In this document: one piece after another, positions 533 to 40,590 of the stretch
How the letters are laid out: the number at the start of each line of letters is the position of its first letter
Numbering within the stretch: position 1 is the first letter of the stretch
Source: Reclinomonas americana ATCC 50394
Taxonomy: Eukaryota
Direction: 5' to 3'
Length of the DNA stretch: 40,607 bases
NCBI GenBank assembly: GCA_048213135.1
Contig: PS015264.1
Location: forward strand, 20,538 to 61,144
Notes under the pieces: model-generated
Told to the model about the DNA's origin: nothing
Database searches by the model: none
The model's input: the letters and a program-made list of their open reading frames with translations, nothing else
Translations under genes and position numbers: made by a program

Positions 533-2916
533 CCTTGATTGAGATCAACGACGCGGATGCAGTCGTTCAGTTCTGACACGAAGAGCCAATTGAGCACGGG
601 ATCGTGGCAGATCTTTTGCGGATACCTGCAGCCGCGCAACGGTGAGTGCCACAAGACATGAACGAGAGACAGAGAGAGAGGCTGCGCAACTTGAACTTGG
701 CGTCCTTGGCCAGACCATTGACAAAGCCGCTCTCCCCAGTTCCCGCCACGGTCAGCGTGAAACCGTCCGACACACGCACAGAGCGGATGCGGTGATTCAT
801 GGTGTCGGCCTGTTGGGTTTGGCGTCCGTGAAATCGATCATGGTAATGAACACATGCGCTCGCACACGAACCACAAAGAGCCTGTCGCCGACCAGCACAA
901 TGCCATCGGGGCAGTGGAAGCGCGCATTGTGGCCACGAATATCGTCATTAAAGCCAGACTCCTCTGACCCAGCAACCACGCGCATAGTCTGCTCAGGCAT
1001 GTCCAGCGCCACAACACCGCTCTTGACGCTCACATACACTACCGTGCCTGTGTGCAGCCAGGTGAGAGAGTGAGACGTAAGAGGAAGACAATGGAGAGAG
1101 CAGACAAACCAGCAGCATTGGCACAGACGCCCCTCGGCTCACACAGACGCGCATCGCGCCATGAGCCGTGCTCCAGACCACTGCACCACAGTGAGCTTCA
1201 CACAGATAAGAGGCGACAATGGAGGAAAAAAACGCACCGTTGTTTCTTGCCGCCGACCAGCGTCTGCACCGTAAGCTCCTCGACAGAGATGAGGCGAACG
1301 GCGTGATTGGAGGTGTCGGCGACGAGAATGTTGTCGTTGACCACACACAGGCCGGAGAGGAAGCCGAACTTGGCGGAACTGATCGGTCCGTCGACCAACT
1401 CGAAGCTGCCGACATTGGCGCCGCACAGGGTGAACACGCTGCCGGTCGGGTCGAGGCGACGGATGCATTGGTTGCCGCTCTCGGCTGCGAAAGTGAAGGA
1501 GGAGGGAGGGAGAGGGGGAAGGGAGAGGGGGGAGGGGGGCAGGGTGAGCCGAATCGGATTATCGTGAAGGCGGGCAAGAGGAAGGAGAGAGAAAGGAGAG
1601 CACAGTGAGATACAAAGAGTGATGTGAGTGAGATTTTAATAGGGAGGATAAACACGAAAGAATGCGATACAGCAATGCAGCACAGAGAGCGGAGAAACGA
1701 GCACAACAGATAACAACGACTAAGCACAGTGCAAGAGAAACGCTATCCAGAACGGAGGAGGTGCACAAGGGCGTCGTTAGAACGAATGCAAACGACCACG
1801 ATGAGACGCAAGGAAGGGAAAGAGCACAAGCAGCAGATCGAGAAGCGTAAGGTTGCGCATGAAGTGGAGAAGAAGGATGAGAATCAGACTCAAATCAGAC
1901 ACGTCAGCGCGGAGTAGAGGGGAACGCGATAATGGGAATGAGGAGCGAGACAAGAAAGACGGCTGAGAATTGCCATGAAGGCCCTTCGAAACGCCTGCCT
2001 TCCTCTTCTCTTCTTTACTCTATCCCTCTTCGCATACAAAATGCTGCACCGAAGACCTTCGATACGCCTGCCTTCCCTCTTCTCATAGCATGCAAAAGAA
2101 TTGCAATGTCCTCCTCTCCTTCCAACTTCTCTCTCAGGATGCAAGAGCCTTCGACATGCCTCCTTTCCCTGCTTTCGCACCCATTTCCCACTTCCCCCTT
2201 TCACCCCCTTCCCCCTACACGCCTTCCCCTTCGACTCACCAATCAACAGCGATCCCTTGGCCATCATCCCCAAATCACACGGATTGGCAAACATGGTCTC
2301 CTGCGCCGTCCCATCGCGATGCCCCTCCTGTCCCACACCGCACACCGTGCGCACCTCCAGATGCATCATGTTCACCCGCGGCGACGTCGCCGCCAACAAC
2401 GTCGTCGTCGTCGTCGTCGCCGATTCCTCCACAGCCGAGGAGGCAGAGGACACGGGCACCGTCCTGCGCGCCGGCGATGCCGAAGCCGTGCGCTGGTGGT
2501 GAAGTTGAGCGGCGGCGGCCACGCGCGGCGTCGGACGAGCCGAAGTCATTGATGGCGGTGGTGGTGGAATGAACGCAGGACCCGCACTCACCAGTGACGG
2601 TGGCTGCTGAGTCACCAATGGAGGTGGAGGAGGAGACACTGCGGTGGCGCTGGGTGGACGAAAGAGTTGCTGTTTGTATTGTGCTGGTTGTGGGGAACCG
2701 CGCGCAGCTGCTGCTGCTGGTGAGGGCGATGCCGAGTCCATCATGTATGCGGAGAGACGAGGAGGTGCGAGGAGAGAGGGGTTGTGACCGGCACCAGTGG
2801 GCGTCATGCTGCGCAGGAACTCCTCCACGCCTGTGTGCGCGAGTGTGAGTATGTGTGTGAGTGTGTGAGATACAGAATGTATTGACGAAACCAATCGGCG
2901 ATGCTGTTCGCTGCAT
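533..2916 (-). CDS. NHL-repeat (beta-propeller) protein with Pro/Ser/Ala-rich N-terminus; at least 7 exons, 3' end not resolved
   Basis: Manual splicing from ATG 2916 gives MQRTASPIG|VEEF...HRDGTAQETMFANPCDL...LLIA|ESGNQCIRRL...VDGPISSAKFGFLSGL...VADTSNHAVRLI...ARLCEPRGV...ARFHCPDGI...LFV|ADTMNHRIRSV...TVAGTGESGFVNG...AKFK|YPQKI. These are repeated NHL-type motifs (FxxPxGI, VADxxNHxIR, TxAGxG). All joins are GT-AG and in frame. Confidence 0.8.
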
Positions 2917-3234
2917 GGCGAGGCGAGGAGTGGAGGAGGAAGAAGGAAGGAAGGAAGCAAGCAGAGGTGTGCGCGTGAGTGAGGTTCGAGTGTAGTGGAG
3001 AGGTGCCTTGCAATCCGTTGACCGGTTCGACCGTTGGATGAAAAATGTGTCGTCGCGATTGGAGTGACTTGCAGTTGACGGAAGCCTCTCTGCAGCAGAC
3101 ACAGAAAAAGGAAGCGTGCAAGCGGCTGGCGTTGCTGCGTGCGCGTGGCATTTTGTGTAATGCATCTACAGTCGAAATCGACTTGAAATTTCACGCAAAC
3201 GCACAGAAACGCACTCGCTGACAGCGCACGCACT
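2917..3234. promoter_or_regulatory. Short divergent (probably bidirectional) promoter region
   Basis: Only 318 nt separate the inferred start codons of two divergently oriented genes. No specific element identified. Confidence 0.5.
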
Positions 3235-6160
3235 ATGGTCTCACGGCGTGATGCCGGCTCGCCCTCCTTTCTCACCGAGGTGGCGCACCTGCCAGGTAAC
3301 GCACACTCACACTCACACACACTCTTCTTTCCTCGTGTATTCACGTCCTGTTCACAGATGTGACTCGCGAGTCCATTCCTCCGCGCCCGCCTCCCTCGGC
3401 ACACGAACCGTTTGTGCTGCCGACGCCAGGCGCACAAAGTGGCTCGTTTCGACGCACAAGAGGCACGGCTGCGTCGAGTTCCGCTCTCGATCTGCGCTTT
3501 CCACCCGTGTCGCCGGATCGAGCAGGCTCGGACGCCGCCACAACACTCTCGCGCTTCACTGACCTGCGCAACACCAAGTACGACTATCTGCTCTATGTTC
3601 TCGACAAGCAAGAGGTAATCAGGCTCTACGATCATGCCTGCTTGCACCCAGTCTCATCCACCGCATGCAGGAGGACGCCGAGGGCGAGAAAAAGGCCACC
3701 ACTGCGGTTGCTTCACCGTCGCCCATGTCGCCGTCGCGTCGCGATCCTCGTCTCGATCAGCTGTATGTGTCGTTGCTGGAGCCTGTGCCATCGGCCGACA
3801 CGCAGGCCAATGGTGGTGCTGGGGATCGAGGTCGCGGAAGGGCACAGCAAGGTCAGCAATGATCATCAGATGCTGGTGTATTCCTTGTGTCGCGTCTCAC
3901 ACGCGTGCATGCATGCACAGCGGCGAGTTCCTTTGTGACCAAGAAGCGACGGCTGAACAGCCAGAGTGTCAGCTCGCATGAGAGCTTGTCGACACTGCGC
4001 AATCTGGAACGACGGCTGACCAAGCTGGCCAGCGACAGCAAGGAGCGGAGAGATCTGGAGATGCGCGTTGGTGAGCAGAAGTGTGTGCAGGAGAAGCCGC
4101 AACAGGAGGGATCGATTCTCACTGTGTCCTCTCCCAGCCGAGTACTTGCGCGAGAGACGACACTCGGACGGCACACTGAGTATTCTGGAGCGCAACAAGA
4201 GGGCGCTGATCGAGTCGGCGCCAGATGCCAAGGCTGAGCGGCTGGAGAACAAGGTGAGAGTGTGGTGTCGCGCGCGGTCCATTGTCTGTCGAGGTCGTCC
4301 TCCTCCTCACGCCACCTATCATGCAGGCGCGGTTTTTCGTGGAGCACCAGCACGAAGTGCTGCAGCGCAGTGTGGAGGTGTTTGCTGAGCGACAAGAGCG
4401 ATTGGCGGAGAAGCTGGCGCAGCAGGAGCGGGTGCGTGTGCACTCTCGTTGATCCACGGATCTCTTTTCCCACCTTTCCTCTCATCCGTGAGACCACAGA
4501 CGCAACGCTCCAAGGAGGACATTCTGGCGGAGATGGTGCAGCGTAATGTGCTCACCATTGTCATCACCACGGCCAGTCGGCTGCTGGTTCTTTCTCGGGC
4601 GCTGATGGTCAGTGACCAACCAAGTGAGTGAGAAAGTGTGCACTTGTCTCTCGCTCACTCCCCATGCGCTGCAGAACGACCGTGCTTGCCGACAAGTGCG
4701 CGTCAAACTGCACACCAAGGCCGCCTTGCTGCAGCGCAACATGCAGATGTGGTATCGTCGGCTCGTCACTCGGCGCTTCTCCAACGGCATGCGCGTTTTC
4801 ACTCGGTACTGCGAATGGAGTTTGTCAGCATTCAATCGCGTCGCTCCTCACTTCACCGCCAACACAGAGTTTTCAACGCGTACCTGTCGAAGAGGAGGCG
4901 TCGTTTCAGGGTGCAGGCTGTGAACTGGATCATCGAGTTCCTCAACGCGCAGCGTGAATCCACGAAACTGGTCATTATTGTTCGACGCTTCCGCAATGCC
5001 GGTCTGTGACTGTTGTGTATCGCGTCCGCACACCATTGTCAAGCACACTCACCGCCAAGCGTGTAGTCCGCAAGATCCAGTCGTTCTTCCGACAACGTCA
5101 GTTCCAAAACGTGACACGCTACGGTCTCAGTATGCAATCGTGGGATCGTTCGGCGTCCAATATTATCGCCGCGTACGACTATGCTTTGCAGGTTAGGTGT
5201 CGACGAGTAATTCTCTCCTTCATCCTATCTGTACCTCACACTTCCTTGCCACAGTATCAACGCGCGGCAGCCCGCAATCCCAACTTCCAGATGCCGCGCC
5301 CTCCTCCCGACAACTACATGCGATCTCTGTTGCGTGCACTCCAAGTTGTTTCGACAGTCGAGCCAGTCTGTCTGATGTGCCCTCACCCCCCTGCAGTTCA
5401 CTTTTCCCCAACGTCACCTTGTCGATCGCTGGCAAGAAGGAGCTGCTGAAGCGCATGTCCAGGTTGGATTATCATTCATTGCATGTGTGTCCGTGCCACA
5501 CCGCCGCTGAACATTTGTGTGCGTGAACACAGAGATCAAAAGATGGCGGTGCTGCAGGAACACTGGCGCGAACAGCAGCGCCAGTTCCGGGAACGTCTGC
5601 GGCAGTATCATGAGGACTTCAAGGCCTTCCAGAAAATGGCGGCCTACATCAAGATGCGCCGTGTTGTTACTGGCCGGGTCGCCGAGAACATTGATCTCGA
5701 TCCGCCTGTGTTGCCGACCATGCGCATCGTCATCTCAGAGGAAGAGGTATTGCGGTATGCTTTCGCGCTCCCCCCATCATCGTGCACTCACCGCCGAGTG
5801 CCCGTGCAGATCATGCGACTGATTGATCGCGCAATCACCGACGCCGCCATGAAACTGCGTGCCTCATTCCACCGATCCTCATCTCCGTTGCGTTCACTCC
5901 ACGTGAAGCACTCTTCACTCACGCCGCTGACTCCCCCCATATCCAGTGAGCGGCCAGTGTCGCCACCGACCACAGAAGATGTCCCGCCTCCACCATCCAC
6001 GCCACCCTCCGAAACTGCTCCTGCAGACGACGACGACGACGACGCCTGCTCGCCAGATTCCCAGCCACAGGAAACTCCAGTCGCTGCACCCGGTGCCAGT
6101 GAGAGCGCCGAGGAACGACCACTGGTGCCGATTCTGCCTCCCACTGCGTTTAGGAAATGA
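3235..6160 (+). CDS. Uncharacterised helical protein with IQ-like motifs; 14 exons
   Basis: 13 short GT-AG introns give one continuous frame from ATG 3235 to TGA 6158-6160. It contains IQ-like segments (VRKIQSFFRQR, AALLQRNMQMWYRR), charged helical stretches and low-complexity ends. No family recognised. Confidence 0.7.
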
Positions 6161-6433: not shown

Positions 6434-9400
6434 TTACGGACTGAACGACAGCTCAAAGGTCACTCGGCAAAACACGAAAAAGATGACGGCCATGATCGCC
6501 TGCAGCAGGAACCAGAAGCCCATCACCGACGGACCCATGATGCCAGACGAGCGGTTGATGACAAACGGCGGCGTCTGCGAGAACGACTTGCGCGGCACGA
6601 CGTTCTGCGGCGGTGGTCGCACCGGTGGTCGCAGATCAGCAGCCGCACGTAACCGCTCGTCAGCCGACAAGGAGGCCATGGAGATGCGCTCACGAGGTGG
6701 GCTGGCCGCAGCGGTGTGGTGCTTGCGACGGCGGGATGCGGGAGGCGACGGTTGCTTGGGCGAGGCATCCACCAGCGCAAAGCAGTCGACACGCGTGATA
6801 TCGCGAGTCACTGCACGCTCGTCCACTTCGTCCACAGTGGCGGCGGTCGCCGCCGACACTGGCGGTGGTGATTGAGGCGATGCGCTTGACGCAGCATTGA
6901 CCTTGCCGTGCACCGACTCGAGCAGCTCGACAATGCGTTCCTGGCGCTGCGATTCGACCGACGACTCTTGCTGACGGCGCAGCGAAGCAGTGACTTTCTT
7001 CACCGCCGAGGCCGCGGCCTCCTCGGCCACCGACACCATCTCCTGACGCATGGCCTGGCGCATGTCCAGCATGGCGGCTGTGACGAAAAGGGACAGGATG
7101 AGCTAAAGGAGGGCAAGAGAAAAAAGAGTGTGGACACACGCACCCTTCATCTCGCGTGCGAGCTGCGCCGCAAGCTCGGACACTGCACTCTCCACAACCT
7201 TTTGTGGGTTGGACGCCTGCGGAATGGCGTCGAGGCGTTCGGCCACTTGCTGCACCACGGCGTCGTGCTTGTTCTGCACAGTGCGAATGTCGCCAATCTG
7301 CTCCTCGATGCGGGTGATGCAGTCTGCGTGCGGCGGAGAGGGTGAGCTGCTGCTGATTTTAGTCGCCAGGGACACAGAGGGGGAGACAAACCGTGCCAGT
7401 TGGTCTTCTCGACGGTGTCAACAGTCTCGCCAGCAGTAGCAACAATGCCTGCGTACGTGCAAAAGGCGGTGAGGAGTGGGAGGGATAGAGAGACCGGGGT
7501 TACTGCTCACTGTGCGCACCACCAGCAGACTTCACGAAGCGGGCGGCTACCAGGTCGGTCACGCTGTCGCTAATCTGCGACGCACGCTGCAGCAGCGGGG
7601 TCACAGTTGACGAGGGAACCGCATTGGCAGTGCGGTGGAGAGCGGCGATAATGTCGGTCTCCAGGTGCTGCGCAAAGCCTGTGTGGTGTGGTGGTGGTGG
7701 TGGGGGGTGAGTTTCGTGTGTGCTTGGAGAGATCATCGGAATGTGCGAATGCACGCACCTTCCATGCGCTTGCTGAGTTGGCCTTCGCGGTTCTGAATGG
7801 CCTCCTTGGTGGCGGCGCAGGCCTTTTCAGCCAGGCGCTCCGACAGGGTCGAGAATTCCTCTGTGCGAAAGGGGGAAGTGAGTGAGGGGGAGGGCGGAGA
7901 AGGAAGAAAGGAGAAGGAGATAACGGAGAGGGAGAAAAGGGAGAGGGAGATAAGGGAGAGGGAGATAAGGGAGAGGGAGATAAGGGAGAGGGAGCTAAGG
8001 GAGAGGGAGCTAAGGGAGAGGGGGATAAGGGAGAGGGAGATAAGGGAGAGGGAGATAAGAGAGGGAGCTCAGGGAGAGGAAGATAAGGAAGATGGAGACG
8101 GAAAGGGAGAGGTAAGAGGAAGAGGAAGAGGGAAAGCGGGTAGAGGGAACAGGGAACAGGGAAAAGGGAAGAGCGAAGAGGGAAGAGGGAAGAGGGGAAG
8201 AGGGAGAGACTGAGACAAAGCAGACTGGGAGAACGGCACTCAACTCTCAAACTTGTCCTGCGCCAGCTCGCTGGCAGTGCGCTTGGAGACGGCCGACACA
8301 GTTCGGTCAATCATCTCGCTGACGCTGTCTTGCGTGGAGCGGAACCACTCTGCGTGCCATGGAGTTGAGAGGCACGAAACTGAACGACGGGTAAGGCAAC
8401 AAAGATCTCACGAACCAGTCATGTGATCGCTGAGTGCAGCGCGCAGCTGCTTCGAAAGCAGGCCAAAGGTGCCGACTCGAAGGCGAATCGACTCGGCCTC
8501 CACCATATTGTCGGCGTCTGTTATGCAAAACAGTCAGCGCACAGAAAGAGGACGCTGGCCTGCATGTCGTTCTGACGCACCAGCCACCGCCTCGGCCACC
8601 GCTTGGCGAGCCTCGTCGGGCGAGTAGGAAGTTGCAAACTTGCCGTTCTCCAGCTGCTGGTTGACCACGGCAATGGCCGCAAAGCACTCATTGATGCGCT
8701 CCGCGTTGCCGGCCGTAGCTTGTATGATCTCTGCGCGATGATGTGTACCGAAATCAGCACCCTGCATGACGACGACGAGAGACATGAAGAACATGCGCCT
8801 CACTCACCCTGCAGGTGAGCCAGCACCACATGGTGCTCCTTGGCAGACTCGAGTCGCAGCACTTTCTCTGCACGAGCGAAAGAGAGAGAAATCATAAGCA
8901 AAGAAAACGACGCGAAAATGCACGAGGAGTGCCAAGGACCTTGCAGGCGCTCCAACTCGGAGAACAGTCGGCGGTAGTAGGTGGGGGCTGCGCGCATTTC
9001 AGAGTGAGGCAAAGTAAGATGAAAGGCAGGAGAGAAGGATTAACTCACAAACTGCACTGCGGGTGCCGCCCGGCGACATGGAGTGGAACGACTGCTCGAG
9101 CGACCCAGAGCTGGTGTTCAACGCCGGTGGAGCCGGAAGGGTGCGGAAACGGACCTTCTCGCGCTGCTCGCGAGTGACGCGCGTCATCTCGGCGTGCTTC
9201 TGGCGCATCTGGTCAATGGCGTCACACACTTCGCTCGGGTTCGACGCCGTCGAGGTGGTGGTGGTGTCGGCGGCCGCGGTGGTGGTGGTGGTGGTGGTCG
9301 CGGAGGTGACAGTTGTTGCGATGCTCGGCTCGCTTTGCATGCGCTGAAGGAGTGGCTTGACGGCCTTGAGCATGGCCTCGTGGTGCTTCAGGATGTCTGC

Positions 9401-12558: not shown

Positions 12559-15500
12559 TCATCTCACACCGACCAATATGTCCTCGAGCTGGCGGAGCAC
12601 GTGATCGACACTGTGACCGCCGCGCACCGCAGCGTCAGAAAAATGATACGATACAGCGAACAAATCTACTACAAAGCGCCGCACCTGGTTCTCTCGTCGG
12701 CGCGCCAGCGCAGACAGTGCGCCACGATTTCGACGTAGGCAGGTGGCACCGTGTAGCCACTTGCATCGCGCGCCAGCATCTCCGGTTGTAATCTCAAGTC
12801 CAGTGACTCTGCGCGCGACGATGAGAGATGGTGGGAACCAGTATCTAAGAAGGGAGAAGGAGAAACCTGTGGACAGTCCGTGGACGACCATCATCGGTTG
12901 CATGTGGGCAAAGGGTTTTCGCAGCGTGGCCAGCTCCCACAGCACCAGGCCGAGGCACCAGACGTCGGCTGGGGGAAGGAGAGAAAGGGAAGGGGAAGGG
13001 AAGGGAAGAGGAAGGGGAGGGAAGGGGAAAGGAGGAGGAAAGGAGGGGAGAAGGAGGGGAAGAAAGGGGAGGGGAAGGGGAAGAGAGCGAGAAGAGTGGG
13101 GAAGGAGGGGAAGGAGGGGAAGGAGGAAAGGTGGGAAGGAGGAGAATGGAAAGAGAAGGACAAAAGGGAATGAGAGAGGGGCCGGAGAGAGGGGAAGAGA
13201 AAACAGGGAAGTGAAGGGAGGGAAAGAGGGAAAAGAAGGGAAAGATAAGAGAGGTGCGAAGGAAAGAGGGAGAGGGTAAGTGAGGGAAGGAATGAGAAGG
13301 AGGAAAGTAGGCAGAGCATGAATGGAAACGGATGACACAAACAGACAGAGAATGAATGAATGAGAAGAGACAACGAAAAAAGGAACGAGAAGGAAGATCG
13401 CGCACGCGTGTGTGTGTGAGAGGAGAGAATAGCGAGAAGAGGGAGTCAATTAACAACTCAGCGAAGTAGACGAATGCTCACGTGGGATACCTTTCAGAGA
13501 GTACCGTTCACCACGACCGACCTCAGGCGCCAGGTACACGAGCGTGCCGATTTGTGTCATGGTGGTGGTGGTCTCGGCCAGGCGGGCGAGGCCGTAGTCG
13601 CCAATCTTGGCTTCCCAGTCGTCGGTGATGAAGATGTTCTCGGTTTTGACGTCGCGGTGGATGCTGTTGCAGGGGGAGTGAGGTGGGACTGACACGAGAA
13701 GGAGGGAGGGTACAACACAACGCAACATTGGCTGCGGTAATGAGTGGAGAAAGTAGAGTCCGCGCACAATGCCCCGTGCGATCTGCAGAGTGCGGTCAGT
13801 TGTCCACGGGTCGGTGGCGAGCCGATCCTGTGAGAGGCAATCTGCCAAGCTGCCGCGCTCTGCGTACTCGGTGACGAGGGCGTTCTGCAGGCGAGCAGGG
13901 GTGAGTGAGAGTGGAACAGAGGAACGATCATCCGCATACCTGCTTCTCTGTCGCCACGATACCCAGGCACTTGAGAAGATTCGGATGACGGAGGGCAGAC
14001 AGCACGCGAACTTCGCCGGCAAAGGCTCTCATGGAGCGATCGGCCTCGGCGTCGCGCTCCGGCGATAAGCCAAGAACCCTGCGGGAAAGAACGATGAACG
14101 ACGACAATAAGATTGCTTTCTGCGGATGAGTTGTGCATCGAAGTTGCACATTCCTTCCTTTTCTCCGTCTCTCTCCTACAGTACGAATGCAGACGATTGT
14201 TCCTTTTTCCCTCTCTCTGTATTCTGCGCATCCAGAGCAGTACATCGCCCTCTTGCGCACAACAGGATTCCCTGTGTTCCTCCTCTCACCCTCTCTTCCA
14301 TGTTTCTCTGCTTCTACAAAAATTAAGATCTACAGCTGTTGTATCGAATGCATCTCAGTCAGTCACTCTCAGAGCCGGAGAGAGGTAGAAAGAGATAAAG
14401 AGAGCAAGAGACGCAGGCGAATAAAACAGAGAGCAGAGACCGAGCGCGTGGCATCCCTCACTTTCTCCCCCTTCCCCATCACACGCACCACGGCACGCGG
14501 AAACACTTGACGGCCACATGCAGTCCATTCCAGTCGGCCAGAAACACATCACCGAATGAGCCGACGCCGATGCGCTCGAGGGCCTCCACCTCCGACGGCG
14601 GAATGACCTTGATGCGAGCGTCTTCTGGTCCGTAGCGGCTGTCCATCTCGGGATCTGGCGCGGCAATGTACTGCAACCCGCTGGCGTGAGTGCCACACCG
14701 ACATTTTCGCTGTGCCTCGCAGCACGCAACTCGAACAAGCGGCGAGTACTGCCCAGAGGCGGCGGCCGACGAGGGGGCTGATGAAGGAAACGAGGCCTCG
14801 CTGGCCCCTCCAGTGGCGGAGGAGGCGTTGGACAAGCGCGGCGACGCGCCACCACCGTAGTACACGCTGTCGGTGTCGCCGCTGTTGATGTCGGTGCGGA
14901 TGAGGGGGGACATGTCGTCCTCGCGGAGGGTGATGCGCGTGCTCTCCGCCTTGGCCGCCTGGCTCTCCTCGACCATGAAGCGGAAGACCAGGAAGAAGCC
15001 GGAGGGGATGACCAGGGCCGTACTCTGGAGAAAAGGGAGAGGGTGGGCGAGGAGAAGGGGAAGGGGAAAGGAAAAGGGGAAAGAGAGGAGAGGGAGAAGG
15101 GAGAGGGTGGGCAAGGGAAGGGGAAGGGGGAAGGAGATAAGAGGGGAGAGGGGAGAGGGAGGGAATGGAAAGGGTGGGCAAGGGAAGGGGAAGGAGAATT
15201 AGGGGGAAGGAGAGGGGGGAGAGGAGAGAGGGGAGAGGAGAGAGGGGAGAGGAGAGAGGGGAGAGGAGAGAGGGGAGAGGAAAGAGAGGAGAGCGGAGAA
15301 GGGGAAGGAGATAAGAGGGTAGAGGGGAGAGGGAGGGAAGGGAAAGGGGACAGGGGAGAGGGAGAGGGAGATAGCGGAGAGGGAGAGGGAGAGGAGAGAA
15401 GGGAGTGGTGAGAGGAAGAGGTGAGAGGAAGAGGTGAGAGAGGGAGAGGGGAGAGGGAGAGGGGAGAGGGAGAGGGGAGAAAGGAGAGCGAAACGGAAGA

Positions 15501-17102
15501 GGAAGGGAAGGGGAGTACAAGCCACCATGCAAGGACATGAGAAGAGTGAACGAAAGAAAAGGACAGCTGGAAAGAAGGAAAGAGAGAAAGAGCAACAATG
15601 CCACAGATGAGCAAGCGAGAGAGGATGGCTGAATGGATACACGTATGAGGCACGGAGGGAGTGCATGAATGCGGAATAGGTAAGCGTTGTTGGTTAAGCA
15701 TGTGAAGAGACTAACGAAGGACAGACAGAGAGAAAGACAAAATAAAGAGAGGAGAGAGAAGGAGAAAGAAACACATTGTGACAGGCCAAGAATAAAAGAA
15801 AGAAACAACGTCAGCAAACAGTTGGAAAACGAAGAGAGGAAAGTCAGCAAGACAACGAAGAGAAAAGAGGCACACATGCGAGCAAATAACAAACAACGAA
15901 GGAAGCACTGCATGTACATGCATGGGTAATGAACGACGCTCTCTGCCGGTCAACAGACGAGCAGATCTTGTGTGCCAACAATTATCATGCCCCCACAACG
16001 CAACAATCACAAAACAATCGAACGTGTTGGTGGTCTCTGGCACATCTCCCGGAAACAGAGCAACAGACTGCGTACAGACCGTCAGCTGCCAAACAAGACC
16101 CCACTCGTGACGACTTGCACCGCCCTGCACACCAGAATATCCAACAAAACAACCGAAGTCCACGTGCAGAAAATGTACAGGGCACAGCTCAGCTCCCAAA
16201 AGCCGCCACGCCGAATGATGGCATTCACCAGGGCGATGGTGGCCAGTGCCCACAACAGTCCATTGACGACACACAGCTGGATCCAATACATGCGGTTGCG
16301 CGACAGGTTCTGCAAGGGAAAGGAGTCACCGGAAGAAAGAGATGGACGACAATACGGGGACTCTGCCTCCCCCGTCGCTCACCAGCGCCAGCATGGCTCC
16401 CGTCAATAGCAACGCGGAAATGATGCAGTTGGCCACCCACGGTAATCTGGGCGACGGCAGTGGGCGGCAGCATCGGCGGCGTCGGCGCTCAAAACTGGCG
16501 TAATCGTCCGGCGCGTCTCGCCGAGTCAGCAGGGCGCAGGCGGCGTACGCCGTGAGAATGTACTGCAGCAAAATGGTGAGTGGCTGGTGTGTTTGACTGC
16601 AAGAGAAAGGGAGGCGGAAGCGCACCAGCATGACGTTGCCGACGCTGAGTTTCTTGCTGTAGAGGCCGATCAGTCTGCGAGAAGGGGGATTAGAAATACA
16701 CAGAGAGTCGTGGGGGGCGAGAGAGAAAGACGCACGGTGCGAATGCCAAGTAGATCCACATTCCCTGCGGCAATGTGAGAGAGGGTAAAGCAAAGGTAGG
16801 AGTAGGAGACGCGAACCGTTGCGACCAGGTGGAACACCACGTATTCTGTATGGTAAGGCGGGTGGTGAGGCAAATGAAGGGAACAAGGCATGTGGAACAC
16901 GCGGGACAGGAAAAGAGACGATGAGAACGAGGACAAGTGACGGAAAGGAGAGGAAGATGGCGAGAAGGAGGAGGAGAGAGGAGAAGGAGAAGGAGAAGGA
17001 GGAAGATGTGAGATGAGAAACAGGGAGCCCGCAGCGAGGATGCAATGCAATCAACAAGTGAGTGAGAGACAGTGCTCCTCGCATCCTCTCTCTCTCTCTC
17101 AC

Positions 17103-25959: not shown

Positions 25960-27913
25960 TCACTCTGGACAAGCTGGTGAGCTCTCCCACTGCGCAATGT
26001 GTGGCACATACAGCGCATAGAACCCTAACATTGGGAGGAGGANNNNNNNNNNNNNNNNNNNNNNNNNNNNNNNNNNNNNNNNNNNNNNNNNNNNNNNNNN
26101 NNNNNNNNNNNNNNNNNNNNNNNNNNNNNNNNNNNNNNNNNNNNNNNNNNNNNNNNNNNNNNNNNNNNNNNNNNNNNNNNNNNNNNNNNNNNNNNNNNNN
26201 NNNNNNNNNNNNNNNNNNNNNNNNNNNNNNNNNNNNNNNNNNNNNNNNNNNNNNNNNNNNNNNNNNNNNNNNNNNNNNNNNNNNNNNNNNNNNNNNNNNN
26301 NNNNNNNNNNNNNNNNNNNNNNNNNNNNNNNNNNNNNNNNNNNNNNNNNNNNNNNNNNNNNNNGGAGGGAGGGAGAGAGTCTCGTTCCTCCCTCCCTCCC
26401 ACCACCCCGCACCACTCACCTTTGCAGTCGGTGCCGACCAGCAACACGATACCGGGAAACGTGGCGTAATTGGCCTCCAACATGGTAACCAGCGCCGGCA
26501 CAAACATGCGGCTGCTACGAAGCCGGCGAGGAGACATGACCAGCAGTGAGTCCACCGTGAAAGGCACAGGCGTGTTCGGTGTGCACGATCCGAACATGCC
26601 CGGAACAAACGATTGCAGCGGCACTGGCGGCGGTGGAGGAGGCGGTGGAGGCGGTGGTGGTGCAACGACCGTTGGAATGATCGAGAACAATGGTGGTGCA
26701 CAGCTCTCCCCAGCAAAGGTTGCCTGCAGGAGATAATAAGTCAGTTGCAAACTCCGCGGACGAAAAAATCCCATACACCACCAATAAAAAAACGTTCGCG
26801 AATATGTGCAGTGCCCTGACGTCAACACTCCTTCTGCACACGTACAAAAGACATTGCTCTGTTTTCACGGTGTGCATTCGCCTCACTCGTACTTCATCTT
26901 CCCGCGCGTCGTCACGCACAGGCACGCGCTCGACGCTGCGCAAGCATTGTGATTGTAATATTCCCCTCCTAATTGACTGGACACACTCTGTCTTCGCAGT
27001 ATCGGTTGTCTTTCTACTTTGTGCAGCTATCTCTATATGTCTCCCACTGATGCTGTCAGCACCGTGCTATGCGCTGTCCACCCACGATTGCAAGCGTACA
27101 TACCGGTTGGCGGCGACAATGTCGTTTTCTATGCGGGGGGCCGGCGTCCTCCTCGTGCACTTCTTCCTGCTTGCCATGTTGATCGTCGCCACCACCATCG
27201 CCAATGGTGAGTCGAGTGCGCTTCAACAGTGCGCGTCTGTCCTCGCTCGCCACCTGCTGCACCTGCAATGGCGCCAGTGCAGGAGTGGCCATGGTGCCGG
27301 TGACATCGGCGAGGCGACTCGGCGGCTCAGCGCCACGTGCGCGAATCCACCGACGCTCCTTGGCACGACGGTTTTGGAACCAGATCGCCACCACCTTACT
27401 GTGGAGGCAGAGAGAGCGAGAGAGAGGGAAAGTGAGTGTCGATACGGAAAGATTCAAAAACTCTCGCACTGAGTGCTCTACGGAGTGACGTGATCATGAC
27501 GCAACGAGGTGAGGTTGAGGTCGGCTGCAATGCGCGCCTTCTCCAGTGACGACGGGTACCGAGTGTGCGTGAAAAGGCACTCCAGTGCTTGCCTCTGTTT
27601 TGGTTTGTTTTTGCAGTGAGGGATTCTTTTTTGGGAGGAAATCATCATGGCAATACACACACACACACACCTCTTGCTTGGTGAGTCGGCGTGAGGTCCA
27701 CTCCTGCAGCAGCAGCAGCAACAGCAGCACGCGCATTCAGAGAACGTGTGTGGCACAGGGAGAGAGAGAGAGAGGAGATACCTGGACAAGCTTGTCGTCG
27801 ATGCCGTTCTCCTTCTCCCTCTGCTCCTCCTCGAGCTCCTCCTCCTCCTCCTCGGCCTCGCAGTCATGGTATTCGCGCATGAGCGTGGGCGCATACGTCA
27901 TCGGGGGGTTCAT
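25960..27913 (-). CDS. Homeodomain transcription factor (non-TALE, Q50) with acidic N-terminus and poly-Pro C-terminal region
   Basis: The spliced homeodomain reads EWTSRRLTKQE|RQALECLFTHTRYPSSLEKARIAADLNLTS|KVVAIWFQNRRAKERR (about 27703-27345), with the hallmark L16/F20, YP and WFQNRR. The downstream exons and the stop at 25960 are less certain because the model crosses gap 26043-26363. Confidence 0.8.
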
Positions 27914-32046: not shown

Positions 32047-32085
<39 letters not shown>

Positions 32086-34741
32086 GGTACAGCTTGTCGT
32101 GCTGCTGCTGAGGATTAGGCTGCGGCGAATAGGTGCGCGTGGATGCAGAAGCTTCGATACAACTGTTATCTTTCAGTGCGATTTTACGCTTTTCCTGCTG
32201 ATCATCGATAGAGAGAGAGAGGGAGAGAGAGAGAGAGAGGCGAGGCTTGAGTGTGCTGTTGCGTTGAATCAGACTCCGATGGTGCTCAAGAGAAAGGGTG
32301 TGCATGAATGCAGAGGCTGTTGTTTTGATTGTCATTCTGTGCTATTTTCTCGAGTACGACAGAGTGGTGCATGTGAGAAGGGCGTGCACGTTGTTTTTCA
32401 CGGTGCCTTTCGCAAATTGACGAAGAGAGATGGAGAGATTGAGAGAAAGATGGAAGAGCGAGTCAGGTGCAGCTTGCAGTGTTGCTGCGGAGGATGAAGC
32501 TGCGGCGTAGGGTGCACGTGAATGCAGACGCTTGTCGATACAACTATTATCTTTCAGTGCGATTTCGTTAGTGAAGAGAGAGGCTAGTTTCCGGTGCTCT
32601 GGAGGAACAGGTTGACGACATGCTGAAGAGAAGGGTCCACGTGAATGCTGGTCGATGATCTGGTTGCCTTTCTTTACCTATCAGAATTACTTATTGTTGA
32701 GGAGAAGGGTATGCGAGAGAGCTCATCGAGGTCTTGATTCGGATCTCATTCCTTCTTCTCCTTGTGTCAGGACTTTCTCCACCCCCGCATGCGCGATTTT
32801 GTCGCCGGCAAGATTACGCTCGACGAACTGTCCAGCGACACGGGCATTCCGCGCATCCGCTGCATGCCAGTGTTTACCGAGGAGTTTGAAGAGTTGCGCA
32901 GAGATGCCCAACCTGTTGTTGCCACAATCTCACTCACTTGGGTTGCAGAAAGCTGTTGCTGGAGGTGGAGCGATTCGAGCAGCAGGTCGACGAGAGGTGT
33001 CGGCCGAATTCCATGAACAATGTTGCGTGACTGCGAGGCAAAGGAGCAGATACAGGCAAAGTGAGCGTGCAGCCGCTTACCCTTTGTTGACATGCAGGAG
33101 GGCACCGTCATGTCAGAGCTCGGCATGACTGCATTCTTCGACGCCTTTGTGGAGCACTGTGCGCGTCCCATCGGCGCTCTCTTGTACGCGGATCGCGGAG
33201 GCGCCACTCTCAACACGCAGCATTCGTTCACGGTAAAATGTTGCGTCGCCGTGTTCTCTCAGCGACGGTTCTCTCTCACTCTTGCACACGCGCGCTCTCT
33301 CTCTCTCTGTCTGCCTGTCTGTCTCGCTGTCTCTGTCTCTCTCTCACCTCTCTCTCTAATTATCTGCCTGCTTGCTGTCTGTCTCTCTCTCTCACACACA
33401 CACCGTTCTCTCGCACTCCTGCATTTTCTCTCTCTCTCACTGTTCTCTCGCACTGCTGCACACGCTATCTCTCTCTGTTTCCCTCTCGCTGTCCGTCTAT
33501 CTCTCTCTCTCTCGCTCTCTCTCTGCCTGCCTGTCTCGCTGTCTCTGTTTCACTCGCTGTCTATCTCTCTCTCTCTCTCTCTATCTGTCTGTCGCTGTCT
33601 GTCTCTCACACTCCTTCTCCTTTCTTCTCTCTTTCTCTCCCTGTCTGCGTGCTGCTCTTCTTTTCTCGCGTGTTTCTTTTCTCTCTCTCTTTTCTCTCTC
33701 TCCTCTCTCTCGTCACTTTTCGTCTCTGTTTCTCTCTCTTTATATCTATTTATTTCTCACTCTCTCGTATACGTGCACGTGCAATATGTCTCGCTCGATC
33801 CCTGTCCGTGTGCTTCTCTTCCTTTCTCGCGTGTACAGTCTCTTTCTCTCTTGTCTCTCTATCTTTCTCTTTCTCGTTACTCAGTCTCTATCGCACTCTG
33901 TCTCAGTCTCTCTTGCTCTCTTTCTCTTTATCTATGCGTGTCTCCCTCTCTCTCACTCACAAGTTCAGTTCCCCTACTGCCTCCGTGCCGTCTTCCTTTC
34001 TTCCCCCTCTCCCTCTTCTCACTGATCCCTCACTCCTCCACGCTGTCTTTCTTTTTTCTCTCCCTCTCAATCTCTATTCTCCCCCCTTCCCCCCCTCTCT
34101 CTCCCCCCCTTCTCCCTCCCCCTCTCCCCCTCTCCCTCACTCTCTCCCACTCTCTCACCCTCTCCCTTTTCTCACTCACCTCTCTTTCCCCCTTCCCCTC
34201 TCTGTCTCCCCCGCAGACCGCCCTCAAGGCGACGTCGACCTCGACTTCCACACCGACGACAGCGAGGTCACCTTCAACGTGTGCCTGTCGCACGAATTCA
34301 CCGGTGGCAATCTGTACTTTCGCGGCATTCGTGACGACCCGGCGGAGACCGGCGAGGAGTACGCCGAGTGGGTGCACCAGCCGGGAGTGGGCATTGTTGC
34401 GTTCCGAGAGCTACCGGCGTGTCGGTGTCCTCCGCTTTTTGCTTAACCCCCCGCAGGTGCACCTGGGAGCGCACAGACACGGCGCGCTGCCGATTCGCAG
34501 CGGCACGCGCGTGAATCTAATCGTGTGGTGCCGCTCGCAAGACCACCGCGTGCACGCACTGCTGGACGTGTGGAATCAGCAGGCAGAGGTGCGCGCCGCC
34601 GGCACGTTCCCGTCGCCCGACGAGGACTCGCCAGGGGTGTGTCCGCATTGCGCTCGCCAGCATCCACCAGGCGATCACGATCGTGCCGCCGATGAGGATG
34701 GTGGTGGTGGTGGTGGTGGTGGACCGTATCCGCATGATTAA
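31418..34741 (+). CDS. 2-oxoglutarate/Fe(II)-dependent dioxygenase, PLOD (lysyl hydroxylase) catalytic-domain-like; 5' end uncertain (secure from 31552)
   Basis: Spliced product: PVFTEEFE|EKLLLEVE...RPNSMNN|EG...HSFTVK|YRPQGDVDLDFHTDDSEVTFNVCL...FTGGNLYF...HLGAHRHGALPIRSGTRVNLIVW. It has the HxD...H iron triad and the 2OG-binding Arg. Confidence 0.88.
31763..32570. repeat. Intronic array of about 125-bp units separated by (GA)n
   Basis: ATGCAAGGTRCAGCTTGTCGT...TGCGGCGAA...TCTTTCAGTGCGATTTTACGCTT occurs three times in tandem, with a fourth diverged copy at about 32465-32570. Confidence 0.9.
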
Positions 34742-35192: not shown

Positions 35193-35223
<31 letters not shown>

Positions 35224-38200
35224 CAAATGAAGAAGAGCAAGGAAAGAGTGAACACAGAGCACAAGGTAAGAAAGAAAGTGCAAGAGAGTGCACGGCAAGT
35301 GAGAGTGAGTTGATCAATAGAACATAAGAGAGAAAGAAGAAGGCGGAGAAGAAGGGAAGAGTGAGAAAGGTAGAGGGGGAGGACACAGGAGAACGAGAAA
35401 GATTAGCACTGTGATGATCGGGATAGATGCGGGTGGGCGACGAGAAAGTGATGGGCACAAGAGAAAGAGCTTATCAGATTGTTTTCTCTTGTTGAATGAG
35501 AATGACGAGCATGAGAGAGAGAGAGAGAAGAGAGAGAGAAGGACGACTGGAAGGGGGAACCGCTGAACCAGATGCACGTGGAAGAGAGACGGGAGGGCGG
35601 AATGCGGGACGCTAAGGAGACGGAAGTTAAATAATTGCACTGTACTGAGAAGGACCAGTGGATTATTACCCCTTCGAAAGCCTCTTATCAGGCGTGAGAC
35701 ATGCAAGAGAGTAGCGCAGGGCAGTTTCGCAAGGTATGGAGGATCGGTATTCGTCTCTGCGCCCACAAGAGAGGGAGCTGCAAAGGCAGCATCAACAGCA
35801 TTGATAATTTGTTGCAAGTGTCTAAAGAGGTGAGAAAAGAGAGAGAGGGAACTGCAAGGGCAGAGATAAGAGCATTGATAAATCGTCACAGGTGTCCACA
35901 GAGGTGAGAAAAGAGAGAGAGAGGGAACTGCAAGGGCAGTGACAAGAGTATTGATGAATCGATGCAAGTCTCTGCAGAAGAGAGAGAAACCGCACATCGC
36001 CTAAATGGTTGCCCTTTCCCTCTCCATACCTGGCCGTCAACTGCTTGTTCAAGCGCAGCGACAGCGCCGCCACATCGTGCATCACCCCCGCAATCGCCTC
36101 CGCCGTCGAGTCCCACAAAATCGGCACAGTGTCCAGCCTGCACCAACATGAGATCGACGTAATCCCTTCTGTGCACCTGAGTCACACTTACCCGGTTGCG
36201 CACACTGCGCTGAACGACAGCAGCTCGGCCACCGTGTACCGCGACTCATCAGCACGCTGGCACAAAATATTGTCCTCCAGCACCGGCAGCATGACGCCGT
36301 TGAAGCCCGTGTGCAGGAAGTTCGCTCTGCTCACATTTCACGATGACATATCCGTCACGATCATGCTGCTACCACGCACACGCTACGCACCGCTCCAACA
36401 CCGACGTGAGCAGGGCCACTGCCGAGAGCGTGCCTGGGTCGCCAAAATGCTCAACTCCCATGCACTCAATGCCGCCACCGATCGAGTCCCTTTGTTGCGG
36501 GAAGGGTGCAAATGAAAAGTCGAAGCCCTGCATTCACGAGAAAGTGAGATCACTCCTGTACGCAACAGGCGCAAGGGTGCTCACCTTGAATGTCAGGCCA
36601 AACTCCCTGGCGATTTCGTCGACTGCCGGCTGCAGCACTGTCGCGTGCTGCTCGATGAGGGCCTGCAGCCTGGCGGCGCCGTCGTCCAGCGATGCAGCGT
36701 CGGTGAAGGCCTCGGAGACTGTGGTAGGTAAAGGTGAGCACGTGGGGGGAAAAGGGAAGGGAGGTACGAGAGGCGCACCAAGGTTGGCGCATTGCAGCGC
36801 AATAGCAAAGCAGTCGCCGTCGCTGTTGTTGCCCGAGTGGAACGAGCCGGGGAAGAAGGGGTTCTGCGGAGGGAGATAAGGAGAAGGGAGAAGAAGGGAA
36901 AGGGGAAGGGAGAAGGGGACAGGGGAAGGGAGGGGATAGGAGTGAGGGGAGAAAAGAAAGGAATGAGGTGGGAAAAGGGATAGAGGAAGGGGACAGGGGA
37001 AAGGAGGGAGGAGCAAGAGGAGTACACATAAACAGGGTAACAACAGAATGGATGGGCAGAGGAGAACGGGCGAGAGATGAACGAGAAGAAAAGAGGAAGA
37101 GAGCGACTGATTTGAGGAGAATGGACGACAGGCTGGACATGAAAACAGAAGAAGAGAAAGACAGGAGAGAGTTCGGAGGAGAATAATAGGGCAACGAGGT
37201 GACCGAGGCAGGGGGATAGTGAGATGTGCCAGCAAGGCGAGAACGAAACAAGGGTCACATAAGAGATGTGCAATTAATTAAACAGTACACATGAGCATAG
37301 GGACTGACTCGCAGCGGACGCGACTGCAACAGGCACTAACAGTGGAAAGAACTGGACCATCACTCAGAAATAAACGGAATAAGAGAGAGAAAAAAAGGGA
37401 GAAAACGAATGCGTTAAATATGTCCCAATAGCACTCAAAAGCTTGAGAAATGTGTGTGTGGGAAAATTGCGAGTGTTACCCAGAAGTAAACAGAGAAAGA
37501 GTGGATCTGAAGACAATGAATGCCTTGAGTCTGTCCTCTAACAGCGTGGAAACACGCTGGCCAACACTCTGACACCTCGAGAAAGGTAAAAGAAAGTGAG
37601 AAACGTCAAGAAAATGCGCAACCTTTCTCTTTGTCACGTACTCAGCTGCATGCACAGACTGACAAACTTCTTCTCAGCATCACGCAACAAAGGGCCGCAC
37701 TTGCGCCAGAGCCGAGAATCGCAAGTTGCCGAAACCGCCCGACGCGTGCTCCGAGTCCAGTTCGGCGATGCGGCGCACCGCAGCTGCGGCTAGTTGCACG
37801 CAGTCACCGTGAACCCTGTGGAATTTGATTCAGACGCTAATGCAGATGGGGTGACACAAAAAGTAGTGTGCGCAACTTGTCATCGGCGGTGAGTTGCGCA
37901 CACACAAAACATGACGAGGTCTGAGAGCCACAGTGAGTGTCGCGAACGAGGAGGAAGAGAGCTGGAACGGCGAGACCTCTCGAATAATGTCACTGACAAA
38001 CTCGTACGAGCGGGGGCTGTGAGACAGCGCGGCGCCCAGGCCGATGCATTGGAAGCCGATGGCTGTGAATCCAAGGGAATGAGAAAAAAGGAAAAGGGGA
38101 GAAGAAGCGGCGAAACGCACCTTTGAAGCGCGCCTCCACGTCCGTCACCAGCGCCAGCACGCGCTTGCGGGCGTCGTCCAACTCGCCCGACTCGGTGTCC

Positions 38201-38383
38201 ACCAGGAGCGGAAAGTGTGATGTGGAGAAGCGCACGGTCTGCGGAATGAAGGGAAAGGAGGAAAAGGGGGAAGAAGGGGGAAGAAGGGGGAAGAAGGGGG
38301 AGGGGAAGGGAGAGAGGGGAAGGGAAAAAGGTCACTTATCAGCTCTCTCAGAGCAGCGAGTGAGAAGCAAAATGAGAGCACTG

Positions 38384-38415
<32 letters not shown>

Positions 38416-40252
38416 ATAAGGACAACAGAGTGAGAGTATGAGTTGAGAGATGCTGCGGTCTCAATAGCAAGAAAGAGTGAGAGATAGAGAATGTCTCTCG
38501 TTCATATCTCAAAACAAGGCTGCAGAGCGAGTGAGGAACAAGGTGCGAGAGCGCTGGTGTCTCTTTCAGGGCAAGAGAGTGAGAGAATGAGTTGAGGAGA
38601 AGGAAGGCGCAAAAGGTCTCTCATTTCTGCATCTTCTTCAGCTCTCTCTCTCTCTCTCGAATCTCAACCTGCAGAGCGATTGAGAAGCGAAAGGTAAGAG
38701 CGCTGGGTCTCTTTCAAGGAAAGAGAGTAAGAGAATGAGGTGGAGAGACAGGGAGAGAGAGCATGCAGGTTCTCAACAGCAAGGAAGTGTGCGAGAGCAT
38801 CGGAGTGAGAGATAGATCATGTCTCTCGTTCAATATCTCAAAACAAGGCTGCAGAGCGAGTGAGGAACAAGGTGCGAGAGCGCTGGCGTCTCTCCCTTAT
38901 GGAGTGATATAACTGGAGACAGAATGTGAGTTTCTCGCCAGGCAACTTTCCTTTCTCAGTTCTCTCAAAAGCAAATGTTGCAGAGCGATTGAGAAGCAAA
39001 GTGTGAGTGCGCTACTGGCTCTTTCAGGGCAAGAGAGTGAGAGAGAGGTGGAGAGACAGGGAGCGAGAGCATGCGGGTGTCTCAACAGCAAGGAAGTGTG
39101 CGAGAGCGTCGGAGTGAGAGATAGAGCATGTCTCTCATTCAGATCTCTCAAAACNNNNNNNNNNNNNNNNNNNNGTGAGAGAGACTTGCACATGCTCTGT
39201 TGCCCTGAAAGAGATCAACTTCGCTGTTAGACACCTCATGTTCTTCGGCTCATTCTCTAACTCTTGCCCTGCGAGAGTCACCAGCGCTCTCTGACTTTGC
39301 TCCTCACTCGCACGTGAACTTTGTATCTGAGGGAGCTGAGAAGGGGAGGCGCAGAGCGGGAGACAAGACGTGACTCTCTCTCTCTCTCTTTCTTTCCGAA
39401 AGACATGCTGGAGAGACACCATCACGCCGTACTCCTCACTCGCTCTGCAGCCTTGTTNNNNNNNNNNNNNNNNNNNNNNNNNNNNNNNNNNNNNNNNNNN
39501 NNNNNNNNNNNNNNNNNNNNNNNNNNNNNNNNNNNNNNNNNNNNNNNNNNNNNNNNNNNNNNNNNNNNNNNNNNNNNNNNNNNNNNNNNNNNNNNNNNNN
39601 NNNNNNNNNNNNNNNNNNNNNNNNNNNNNNNNNNNNNNNNNNNNNNNNNNNNNNNNNNNNNNNNNNNNNNNNNNNNNNNNNNNNNNNNNNNNNNNNNNNN
39701 NNNNNNNNNNNNNNNNNNNNNNNNNNNNNNNNNNNNNNNNNNNNNNNNNNNNNNNNNNNNNNNNNNNNNNNNNNNNNNNNNNNNNNNNNNNNNNNNNNNN
39801 NNNNNNNNNNNNNNNNNNNNNNNNNNNNNNNNNNNNNNNNNNNNNNNNNNNNNNNNNNNNNNNNNNNNNNNNNNNNNNNNNNNNNNNNNNNNNNNNNNNN
39901 NNNNNNNNNNNNNNNNNNNNNNNNNNNNNNNNNNNNNNNNNNNNNNNNNNGCACTCAGCTCTCGCACAAGACTGCAGAGCGACAGAGAAGTAAAGTGTGA
40001 CAGTGCAGGTGTCTCACCAGCATGTCTTTCGGAAAGAAAGAGAGAGAGAGAGAGATAGAGAGTGACAGACTCATCCTTGTCTCCCGCTCTGCGCCCTCTG
40101 CTTTCCAGATGTCAGATGCAAACTTGAAGAGCGAGTGAGGAGTATCGTGTGAGAGCACAGGTGTCTCTTTCAAGGAAAGGGAGTGAGAGAGAAAGAGGGG
40201 CCTCTCGAAGTTTATGTCTTTCCTGGCAGCAAAAAAATGCGCGAGAGAGTTG

Positions 40253-40285
<33 letters not shown>

Positions 40286-40590
40286 TGCATATACAAGTCT
40301 CTCTCACTCACTCAGCTCCAGCAGAAGACTGCTGAGCAAAGGAAAACTCTCTGTGAATGAGTATTGGAGATGCATTCATTGTCGCATTCTCTCTCTCTCT
40401 CTCTCTCCCTCTCTCTCTCTCTCTCCATCCTCTCTCCTCTCCCTCCTCTCCCTTCTCCCTCCCCCCGCGCAACTTGCAACTCATACAAATCCCCGACAAT
40501 CGCCGCACATCGCGTAGCAAAATCGCGATACTTTTCACTCACACTCCCATCGCAACGCGCCGAGAAGAGCGTCACGGAGCGAACCTTCAT
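34765..40590 (-). CDS. DUF711 / UPF0210 family protein; 11 exons
   Basis: MKVRSVTLF...YELQ|TVRFST...GFGNLRFSALA...NPFFPGSFH...GFDFSFAPFP...FGDPGTLSAVALLT...GFNGVMLPVLED...FSAVCATG|LDTVP...KQLTAR|LMPVP...FPYFSN. These motifs match the DUF711 family as I recall it. All 10 introns are GT-AG and in frame; stop TAA 34765-34767. Confidence 0.85.
35826..35961. repeat. Intronic tandem duplication of about 60 bp
   Basis: AGAGGTGAGAAAAGAGAGAGAGGGAACTGCAAGGGCAG..AAGAG.ATTGAT.AATCG occurs twice. Confidence 0.85.
38340..40310. repeat. Complex repeat filling intron 1 of the DUF711 gene, copies in both orientations
   Basis: ATATCTCAAAACAAGGCTGCAGAGCGAGTGAGGAACAAGGTGCGAGAGCGCTGG occurs at about 38504 and 38834, with shorter GCAGAGCGA-led subunits. 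A reverse-complement copy lies at 39175-39457. Confidence 0.85.

Follow-up and report, generated by a model that had tools for sequence, protein, structure and literature searches.

A GTTGCG class of 5' splice site, tied to exons not ending in G, in a 40-kb window of the Reclinomonas americana genome

In a stretch of DNA from Reclinomonas americana ATCC 50394 (assembly GCA_048213135.1, contig PS015264.1, positions 20,538 to 61,144), a substantial share of the introns begin with GTTGCG, and our analyses show that these GTTGCG sites are real intron starts, abundant, nearly invariant, and tied to exons whose last base is not G. The whole stretch of 40,607 nucleotides (nt), referred to here as the window, belongs to a eukaryotic draft scaffold with about 55% G+C and seven assembly gaps, and its genes are built of many short exons separated by introns that are either about 55-65 nt in length or long and CT-rich. 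The explanation toward which we lean, with moderate confidence, is that these are genuine U2-type GT-AG introns with a discrete second 5' splice site, H/GUUGCGY (H being A, C or U, Y being C or U, and the slash marking the cut), which would be read together with the canonical donors of the window (G/GUGCGY, G/GUGAGY, and G/GUUUGU) in one register, G(G/U)UGCGY. A first-pass annotation made from the sequence had proposed 14 GTTGCG donors and two analogues, GTTGAGT (8238-8244) and GTTTTGT (24110-24116), both on the minus strand. All 14 hexamers and both analogues were found where it had placed them, and none of these 16 claimed donors has G at -1, which is always A, T, or C, and +7 is C or T.

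The motif is in clear excess over dinucleotide-preserving shuffles of the window, which provided all motif expectations given here. GTTGCG occurs 40 times against 20.47 (standard deviation 4.97) expected, and a count of at least 40 was reached in 0 of 100 shuffles. Its two pyrimidine-extended forms, GTTGCGT (15 observed, 4.4 expected) and GTTGCGC (16 observed, 6.2 expected), were each matched in 0 of 200 shuffles, as were the ordinary donor hexamers GTGCGT (36 observed, 20.3 expected) and GTGAGT (54 observed, 29.2 expected), and the ordinary local donors show no stronger excess than the two GTTGCGY heptamers. Across all window copies of GTTGCGT, the preceding base is T in 11 cases, C in three, A in one, and G in none.

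Support independent of the motif was obtained for 10 of the 14 GTTGCG donors, comprising four in an OGFOD2-like gene, four in kinase genes, one in a homeobox gene, and one, weaker, in an NHL-repeat gene. Removal of the intron restores an open frame collinear with homologues or a paralogue in these 10 of 14 cases, and at each supported junction the GTTGCG donor and its acceptor form the sole length-preserving GT..AG pair within 18 nt of both ends, in a screen that tested frame, not stop codons.

The best-supported case is the OGFOD2-like gene (31529-34741, plus strand), in which four of the five introns start with GTTGCG. A HMMER search with one 2-oxoglutarate oxygenase exon returned 417 relatives, of which 150 were fetched and 40 of 300-480 residues were aligned to the window with tblastn; none of the 417 exceeds about 48% identity over the protein, and the named relatives, at about 40-48% identity, belong to Heterolobosea sp. 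BB2, Naegleria, several Amoebozoa, and plants. No relative of an OGFOD2 exon turned up in a scan of metagenomes. At all four GTTGCG junctions, the homologue coordinates in the tblastn alignments are continuous, with neither gap nor overlap. For example, across the 56-nt intron at 32893..32948 (plus; donor aga/GTTGCGCA), residue q161 (F) of homologue P0017 is followed by q162, the spacing remains equal up to the FE motif, and the spliced frame is open. At the 76-nt intron at 33022..33097 (plus; donor aat/GTTGCGTG), homologues align as NSMNN-Y-G against NSMNN-E-G without a gap, and the Pfam family PF25238 matches positions 61-88 at the end of the upstream exon and positions 90-123 from residue 2 of the next exon. 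The 977-nt CT-rich intron at 33240..34216 (plus; donor aat/GTTGCGTC) separates q263 of P0089, which is the last residue of the exon, from q265, the first full codon of the next one, with a single split codon (Y) between them, and at the 61-nt intron at 34396..34456 (plus; donor att/GTTGCGTT) q311 (I) of P0005 is directly followed by q312 (V), many other homologues being alike. Joining the six exons yields an uninterrupted reading frame of 317 residues. In the fifth intron of the gene, the donor is atg/GTTTGTTG. The 1065-nt first checked intron contains, at 31744-32239, 3.2 copies of a 160-bp repeat unit that includes runs of GA (87% matches).

Two paralogous transmembrane kinase genes, K1 (16891-12669) and K2 (22485-18151), both on the minus strand and about 55% identical in their kinase exons, allow a different type of comparison. 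Both encode an N-terminal membrane region followed by a TKL-like kinase domain, and the similarity between the two proteins ends at splice sites, so that the exon ends are fixed without assuming any donor motif. The K1 intron of 63 nt at 13664..13726 (minus; donor aat/GTTGCGTT) interrupts LHSLPQP-I-IHRD, with the same position and the same 9-nt donor as in K2, where the corresponding intron of 191 nt lies at 19541..19731 (minus; donor att/GTTGCGTT) and was placed by paralogue comparison and Pfam coordinates. The two donors, 13721 in K1 and 19726 in K2, share an identical GTTGCGTTG at the same place, and in both genes the following exon enters the Pfam kinase profile at position 120 or 124. Further upstream in K1, the 60-nt intron at 14671..14730 (minus) is bounded by the point at which K1/K2 similarity begins, exactly at cag/TACATT, and its donor at 14725, cga/GTTGCGTG, is the only in-phase upstream donor, 60 nt away; it was skipped by both gene-finding parses described below because these 60 nt are open in frame. 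The 980-nt K1 intron at 15025..16004 (minus; donor att/GTTGCGTT) falls within NTFDCFVI/STALVIPSGFF, matched to K2 at a shared position. At this intron position, common to the paralogues, K1 has att/GTTGCGTT (15999) and K2 has ctg/GTGACTTG, the donor class changing along with the last exon base. Some introns of the pair are not shared, namely a K1 intron running from 12866 to 12809 without a K2 counterpart and a K2 intron (donor 20857) without a K1 counterpart. Another K1 intron, from 13490 to 12969, starts with GTATCCCA and in its first six bases resembles a U12-type site, although it has no TCCTTAAC box.

Protein-domain spacing supports the two remaining junctions. In the homeobox gene, a 107-nt intron at 27399..27505 (minus) has the donor ctc/GTTGCGTC and an acceptor ending in ccacag, and the exon upstream of the donor at 27500 matches positions 8-40 of the Pfam Homeodomain family. 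Splicing gives LNLT-S-KVVAIWFQNRRAK, with six residues between LT and WF, the usual homeodomain spacing. In the NHL-repeat gene, a 65-nt intron at 626..690 (minus; donor caa/GTTGCGCA) was used in the donor-neutral parse. Splicing there would give AKDAKF-K-YPQKI, which is spaced like ARFHCPDGI in the repeat before it, and an NHL Pfam match lies in the neighbouring exon; this donor, at 685, appears more weakly supported, by the internal spacing of the repeats.

The acceptors and branch boxes look alike in the two donor classes. All 15 introns with an assigned acceptor (15 of 15) have a GT 5' end and an AG 3' end, and both donor classes carry a CACTCAC-, CTCAC-, CTTAC-, or CTTAAC-like box about 8-31 nt before a mostly GCAG (YGCAG) acceptor (e.g. 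14671-14700 and 626-655, minus, and 32925-32948, plus), a box that probably represents the branch site. The sequence TGTGGCACTCAC is common to two unrelated introns. These common features bear on the notion that the GTTGCG introns are removed by the minor spliceosome (U12-type) or are of another non-U2 kind, which we regard as the least probable of the readings considered. U12-type introns are defined by the boxes /RTATCCTT and TCCTTAAC, and the present class is reminiscent of them in having a second, sharply defined and rigid 5' signal beside the main one that does not need an exon-final G. On the other hand, the defining boxes are absent here: an [AG]TATCC start is found in 0 of the 15 introns, [AG]TATCC[TC][TC] is absent from the window, and the sole TCCTTAA box lies outside the 15 introns, whereas the acceptors and branch boxes are the same as those of the canonical class. 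The U12-type reading was rejected on these grounds.

It is also conceivable, but highly improbable, that GTTGCG is the terminus of mobile elements of one family whose recent insertions gave rise to these introns, as with the introner elements of Micromonas and Aureococcus, in which many introns share terminal sequence. In agreement with such an origin, many introns of the window share their terminal sequence, the motif is present in four out of five introns in a single gene, the K1 14730 and OGFOD2 33022 introns share 18 of 19 starting bases, and two introns have a 12-nt stretch of the branch region in common. However, what is shared here is limited to splice signals. An all-against-all blastn comparison of the 15 introns gave only donor and branch-box matches of at most 19 nt and low-complexity CT runs, and neither a sequence family nor terminal repeats, inverted or direct, nor target duplications were found in them; moreover, two of the introns occupy positions shared by paralogues that are about 55% identical in protein and are therefore old, predating the kinase duplication. 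With no intron family, no terminal repeats, and old shared positions, the introner reading is largely refuted.

Just as improbable is the possibility that the class is an artefact, produced by misplaced junctions, by motifs present by chance, by genes that are no longer functional, or by a T wrongly added to GTGCGT during assembly. The window does come from a draft scaffold with gaps, an extra T within an intron would leave the reading frame undisturbed, and six of the 16 sites are without an independent check. Chance motifs and wrong junctions are nevertheless difficult to reconcile with the motif excess and the residue-exact junctions, and the spliced frame is open over 317 amino acids. Random insertion errors would also be unlike what is seen, in that a stray T would neither be part of an identical GTTGCGTTG in two paralogues nor be tied so strictly to the base at -1, and the artefact reading was rejected.

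The size of the class was estimated in several ways. A donor-neutral parser was built by dynamic programming with every GT scored alike, using a codon table and an acceptor matrix from 12 verified introns and their exons; eight of the 12 training introns were of the GTTGCG class, but donor regions were excluded, the intron composition being trained without the first 10 nt. In the resulting 145 predicted introns (both strands, many of them spurious), the most used hexamers were GTGCGT (11) and GTTGCG (9), every other hexamer being used at most four times. The parse used 9 of the 40 GTTGCG hexamers, the mean rate of use for GT sites being 3.3% (binomial, 5e-6), and the hexamer table learnt from it was likewise led by GTGCGT (15) and GTTGCG (13) in 155 introns. 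Of the claimed donors, 9 of 16 were used by the neutral parse and 12 of 16 by the trained parse. A single-matrix donor model lost the GTTGCG donors while converging, which is a property of the model and not evidence against the sites, and self-trained gene models drifted into low-complexity sequence and were used for the early donor-neutral counts only. Among introns checked against a homologue or paralogue (n = 24), 9 are GTTGCG and 15 are other; in the three most fully checked genes, GTTGCG accounts for 8 of 22 checked introns, and a hand list read from the parses, with corrections, gives about 14 GTTGCG introns out of about 70 in ten credible genes. These proportions support the claim of the first-pass annotation that GTTGCG is a major donor class. 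Its further claim that the class depends on the base at -1 also stands, G being found at this position in 0 of 9 GTTGCG donors versus 14 of 15 others (Fisher, 7.6e-6, some of the sites being paralogous). Within the 14 claimed donors, -1 and +7 were also seen to be linked, with T..T in eight, A..C in four, A..T in one, and C..T in one (Fisher, p = 0.007, one pair being paralogous).

A single register offers a simple way of relating the two classes. Once the exon-final base is included, G/GUGCGY and /GUUGCGY become heptamers that differ in their second letter alone. The splicing machinery would first bind G(G/U)UGCGY in one register for both classes; in the second class, the first G of the intron would take the place of the exon-final G, and the cut would fall one base upstream, at GU. 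Such a register would be a shifted one, or equivalently one with a bulge at +3 or +2, as in rare human sites, and its reader might be either a standard U1 small nuclear ribonucleoprotein helped by proteins or a small nuclear RNA (snRNA) with a changed 5' end. If so, the base before GTTGCG occupies position -2 of the register, and the rule against G at the exon end follows as a by-product that needs no special cause. The composition at -1 of the GTTGCG donors (T 6, A 2, C 1) does resemble that at -2 of the canonical donors (A 7, T 4, C 2, G 2). A G at +6 and a Y at +7 are found in 14 of 14 GTTGCG donors, which is partly how the class was picked.

Several points weigh against this account. The data come from one 40-kb window with our own gene models, the parser erred at weaker donors, the cut sites are deduced from protein homology and the GT-AG rule, the kinase genes are paralogous so that their sites are not independent, and for 4 of the 14 sites (5329, 37683, 37871, and 40468), as for the two analogues, the support consists of open frames and coding scores. 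Near variants of the motif show no excess in the window, whether GTTGCA (18 observed, 21.8 expected; reached in 160 of 200 shuffles), GTTGCT (27 observed, 22.7 expected; 42 of 200), GTTGTG (20 observed, 20.5 expected; 110 of 200), or GTTGAGT (3 observed, 6.3 expected; 183 of 200), and GTTTTGT is not enriched either (6 observed, 3.1 expected; at least 6 in 16 of 200). What is enriched is therefore specifically GTTGCG with a C or T after it, so that the rule first suggested, of a common local donor with one extra T, fails, only the GCG form being in excess. Base pairing raises a further difficulty. The ordinary U1 5' end is ACUUACCUG, and with this textbook end, its pseudouridines being ignored, RNAduplex predicts only +0.5 and -1.4 kcal/mol for H/GUUGCGY in any register, compared with -3.1 kcal/mol for caU/GUGCGU and -9.7 kcal/mol for caG/GUGCGU, although the U1 of the organism itself may differ. 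With predicted duplexes this weak, plain shifted pairing would bring no gain over an ordinary donor. GUUGAGU or GUUAAGU would moreover be expected to suit standard U1 better, but GTTGAGT shows no enrichment.

Weak pairing with textbook U1 and an unenriched GTTGAGT make a variant snRNA possible, and a lineage-specific change in the spliceosome, as suggested in the first-pass annotation, could be involved. In a stronger form, which we consider tentatively and as on the unlikely side, the sites would be matched, and not tolerated as mismatches, by a dedicated reader complementary to GUUGCGY, be it a U1 snRNA (as sole or second copy), another small RNA, or a protein. The near-invariance of the class (GTTGCG then C or T, with near variants unenriched) and the very weak binding of GUUGCGY predicted for textbook U1 would both be accounted for. 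For a 5' end carrying the hypothetical sequence ACGCAAC, the same calculation predicts -9 to -10 kcal/mol with H/GUUGCGY and, with one bulge, -13.8 kcal/mol with caG/GUGCGU; as such an end would pair with both classes, one RNA could serve both, and canonical donors likewise tend to have C ahead of the final G (7 GTGCG versus 2 GTGAG among those checked). An ACGCAAC-type end would, however, bind G/GUUGCGY best, yet 0 of 14 donors follow G, and the Rfam search of the window returned no RNA gene at gathering thresholds and no snRNA (U1, U5, U6) at E <= 1. GTGCGT is also the donor favoured by GC-rich green algae, whose U1 is an ordinary one, which again counts against a dedicated reader. A more elaborate version, less probable again, envisages two matched 5' splice-site systems in the major spliceosome, the ordinary one (G/GUGCGY, G/GUGAGY, and G/GUUUGU) and one with a dedicated snRNA complementary to GUUGCGY. 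Such a dedicated snRNA, whether a U1 variant or a new RNA, would, if real, add to U1 and U11 a third means of recognising intron starts.

The single shared register remains our preferred explanation, and its closest parallel is found in human introns, where shifted-register and bulge 5' splice sites were reportedly described by Roca and Krainer in 2009 and by Roca and colleagues in 2012. Like those sites, the donors in the window start with GUU, have G at +6 instead of +5, would still be cut at GU, and would make sense only with pairing moved by one base or with a U bulged. The core here is GCG and not the AAG or GAG that standard U1 would favour. Tan et al. (2016, NAR, PMC4856993) describe a register shifted by one position and bulges at +3 or +2, and a review (PMC9311317) likewise treats shifted and bulged registers in human cells; the comparison with such registers drawn in the first-pass annotation is apt. 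The validated non-canonical registers together are estimated by Tan et al. (2016, PMC4856993) to make up about 1.5% of human 5' splice sites, with varied sequences, whereas in the window a single heptamer serves about a fifth of the introns. The window also differs from the introns of Amoebophrya, with their non-canonical borders (PMC7789003), in that the borders here are canonical GT-AG. A GTTGCG donor class was not found described in the limited literature searched, which is not proof of absence. As regards the canonical class, its GTGCGY core is the same as in the rigid GTGCG(T/C) donors that Irimia and Roy are said to have reported from Ostreococcus in 2008; on the other hand, the window differs from Ostreococcus in its long CT-rich introns, and its best protein matches are elsewhere.

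A few base pairs formed with U1 and U6 determine where an intron starts, and out-of-register sites in humans are seen as rare exceptions. An out-of-register heptamer serving about a fifth of introns would, if true, provide a natural system for studying how the position of the cut is fixed independently of U1 pairing, and such a lineage would reveal whether the 5' ends of snRNAs evolve in step with the splice signals. From a practical point of view, gene finders based on a single position-weight matrix will score GTTGCG donors badly, which puts the gene models of this organism at risk.

Three of the remaining claimed donors, at 37683, 37871, and 40468, lie in a DUF711/UPF0210 gene (34765-40606, minus strand) with about ten introns. 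The gene is real, judging from matches to PF05167 on three exons and to NF003700 on three exons and from a relative, P0157, which spans one canonical junction; its N-terminal exons gave no Pfam or NCBIfam match. No family match was found for the YELQ/TVR motif, cited in the first-pass annotation as a conserved pin. The 825-nt intron at 36864..37688 (minus; donor ttt/GTTGCGTG) was chosen by the donor-neutral parse, and its exon chain roughly fits DUF711 positions 149-183 to 262-304. A candidate 61-nt intron at 37816..37876 (minus; donor caa/GTTGCGCA) was chosen only after the hexamer table had been trained. A candidate 2235-nt intron at 38239..40473 (minus; donor caa/GTTGCGCG), which includes two assembly gaps, was placed by open frames only; its flanking exons gave no family match in Pfam or NCBIfam, and in this region the trained parse took another GTTGCG, at 40551-40556, instead. 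Outside this gene, a coiled-coil or IQ-like gene contains a candidate 204-nt intron at 5329..5532 (plus; donor tct/GTTGCGTG) that has open frames on both sides only; the exons around it had no Pfam or NCBIfam match and its donor was chosen by neither parse. Of the two analogues, GTTTTGT follows gga at 24110..24116 (minus) and is present in the sequence only, with no acceptor adjoining a convincing exon, no use of the donor by either parse, and no Pfam or NCBIfam match in the flanking exons, whereas GTTGAGT would start a candidate 384-nt intron at 7861..8244 (minus; donor aga/GTTGAGTG) that was chosen by the donor-neutral parse.

Other features were observed alongside these sites. P0157 is 76% identical on one DUF711 exon and spans the aag/GTGAGCAC junction, and the nearest protein-cluster matches of the DUF711 family are bacterial. 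Purine/pyrimidine tracts at 40242-40433 and 16950-17168, which are able to fold back, collect clustered sub-threshold matches to miRNA (microRNA)-like and snoRNA (small nucleolar RNA)-like Rfam families on both strands, none at gathering score. GTATGCG is seen seven times in the window against 1.5 expected, one copy being a checked donor (13939). Further GTTGCG copies at 5887 (plus), 281 (minus), and 40551 (minus) adjoin open frames of the same genes and may be extra or alternative donors.

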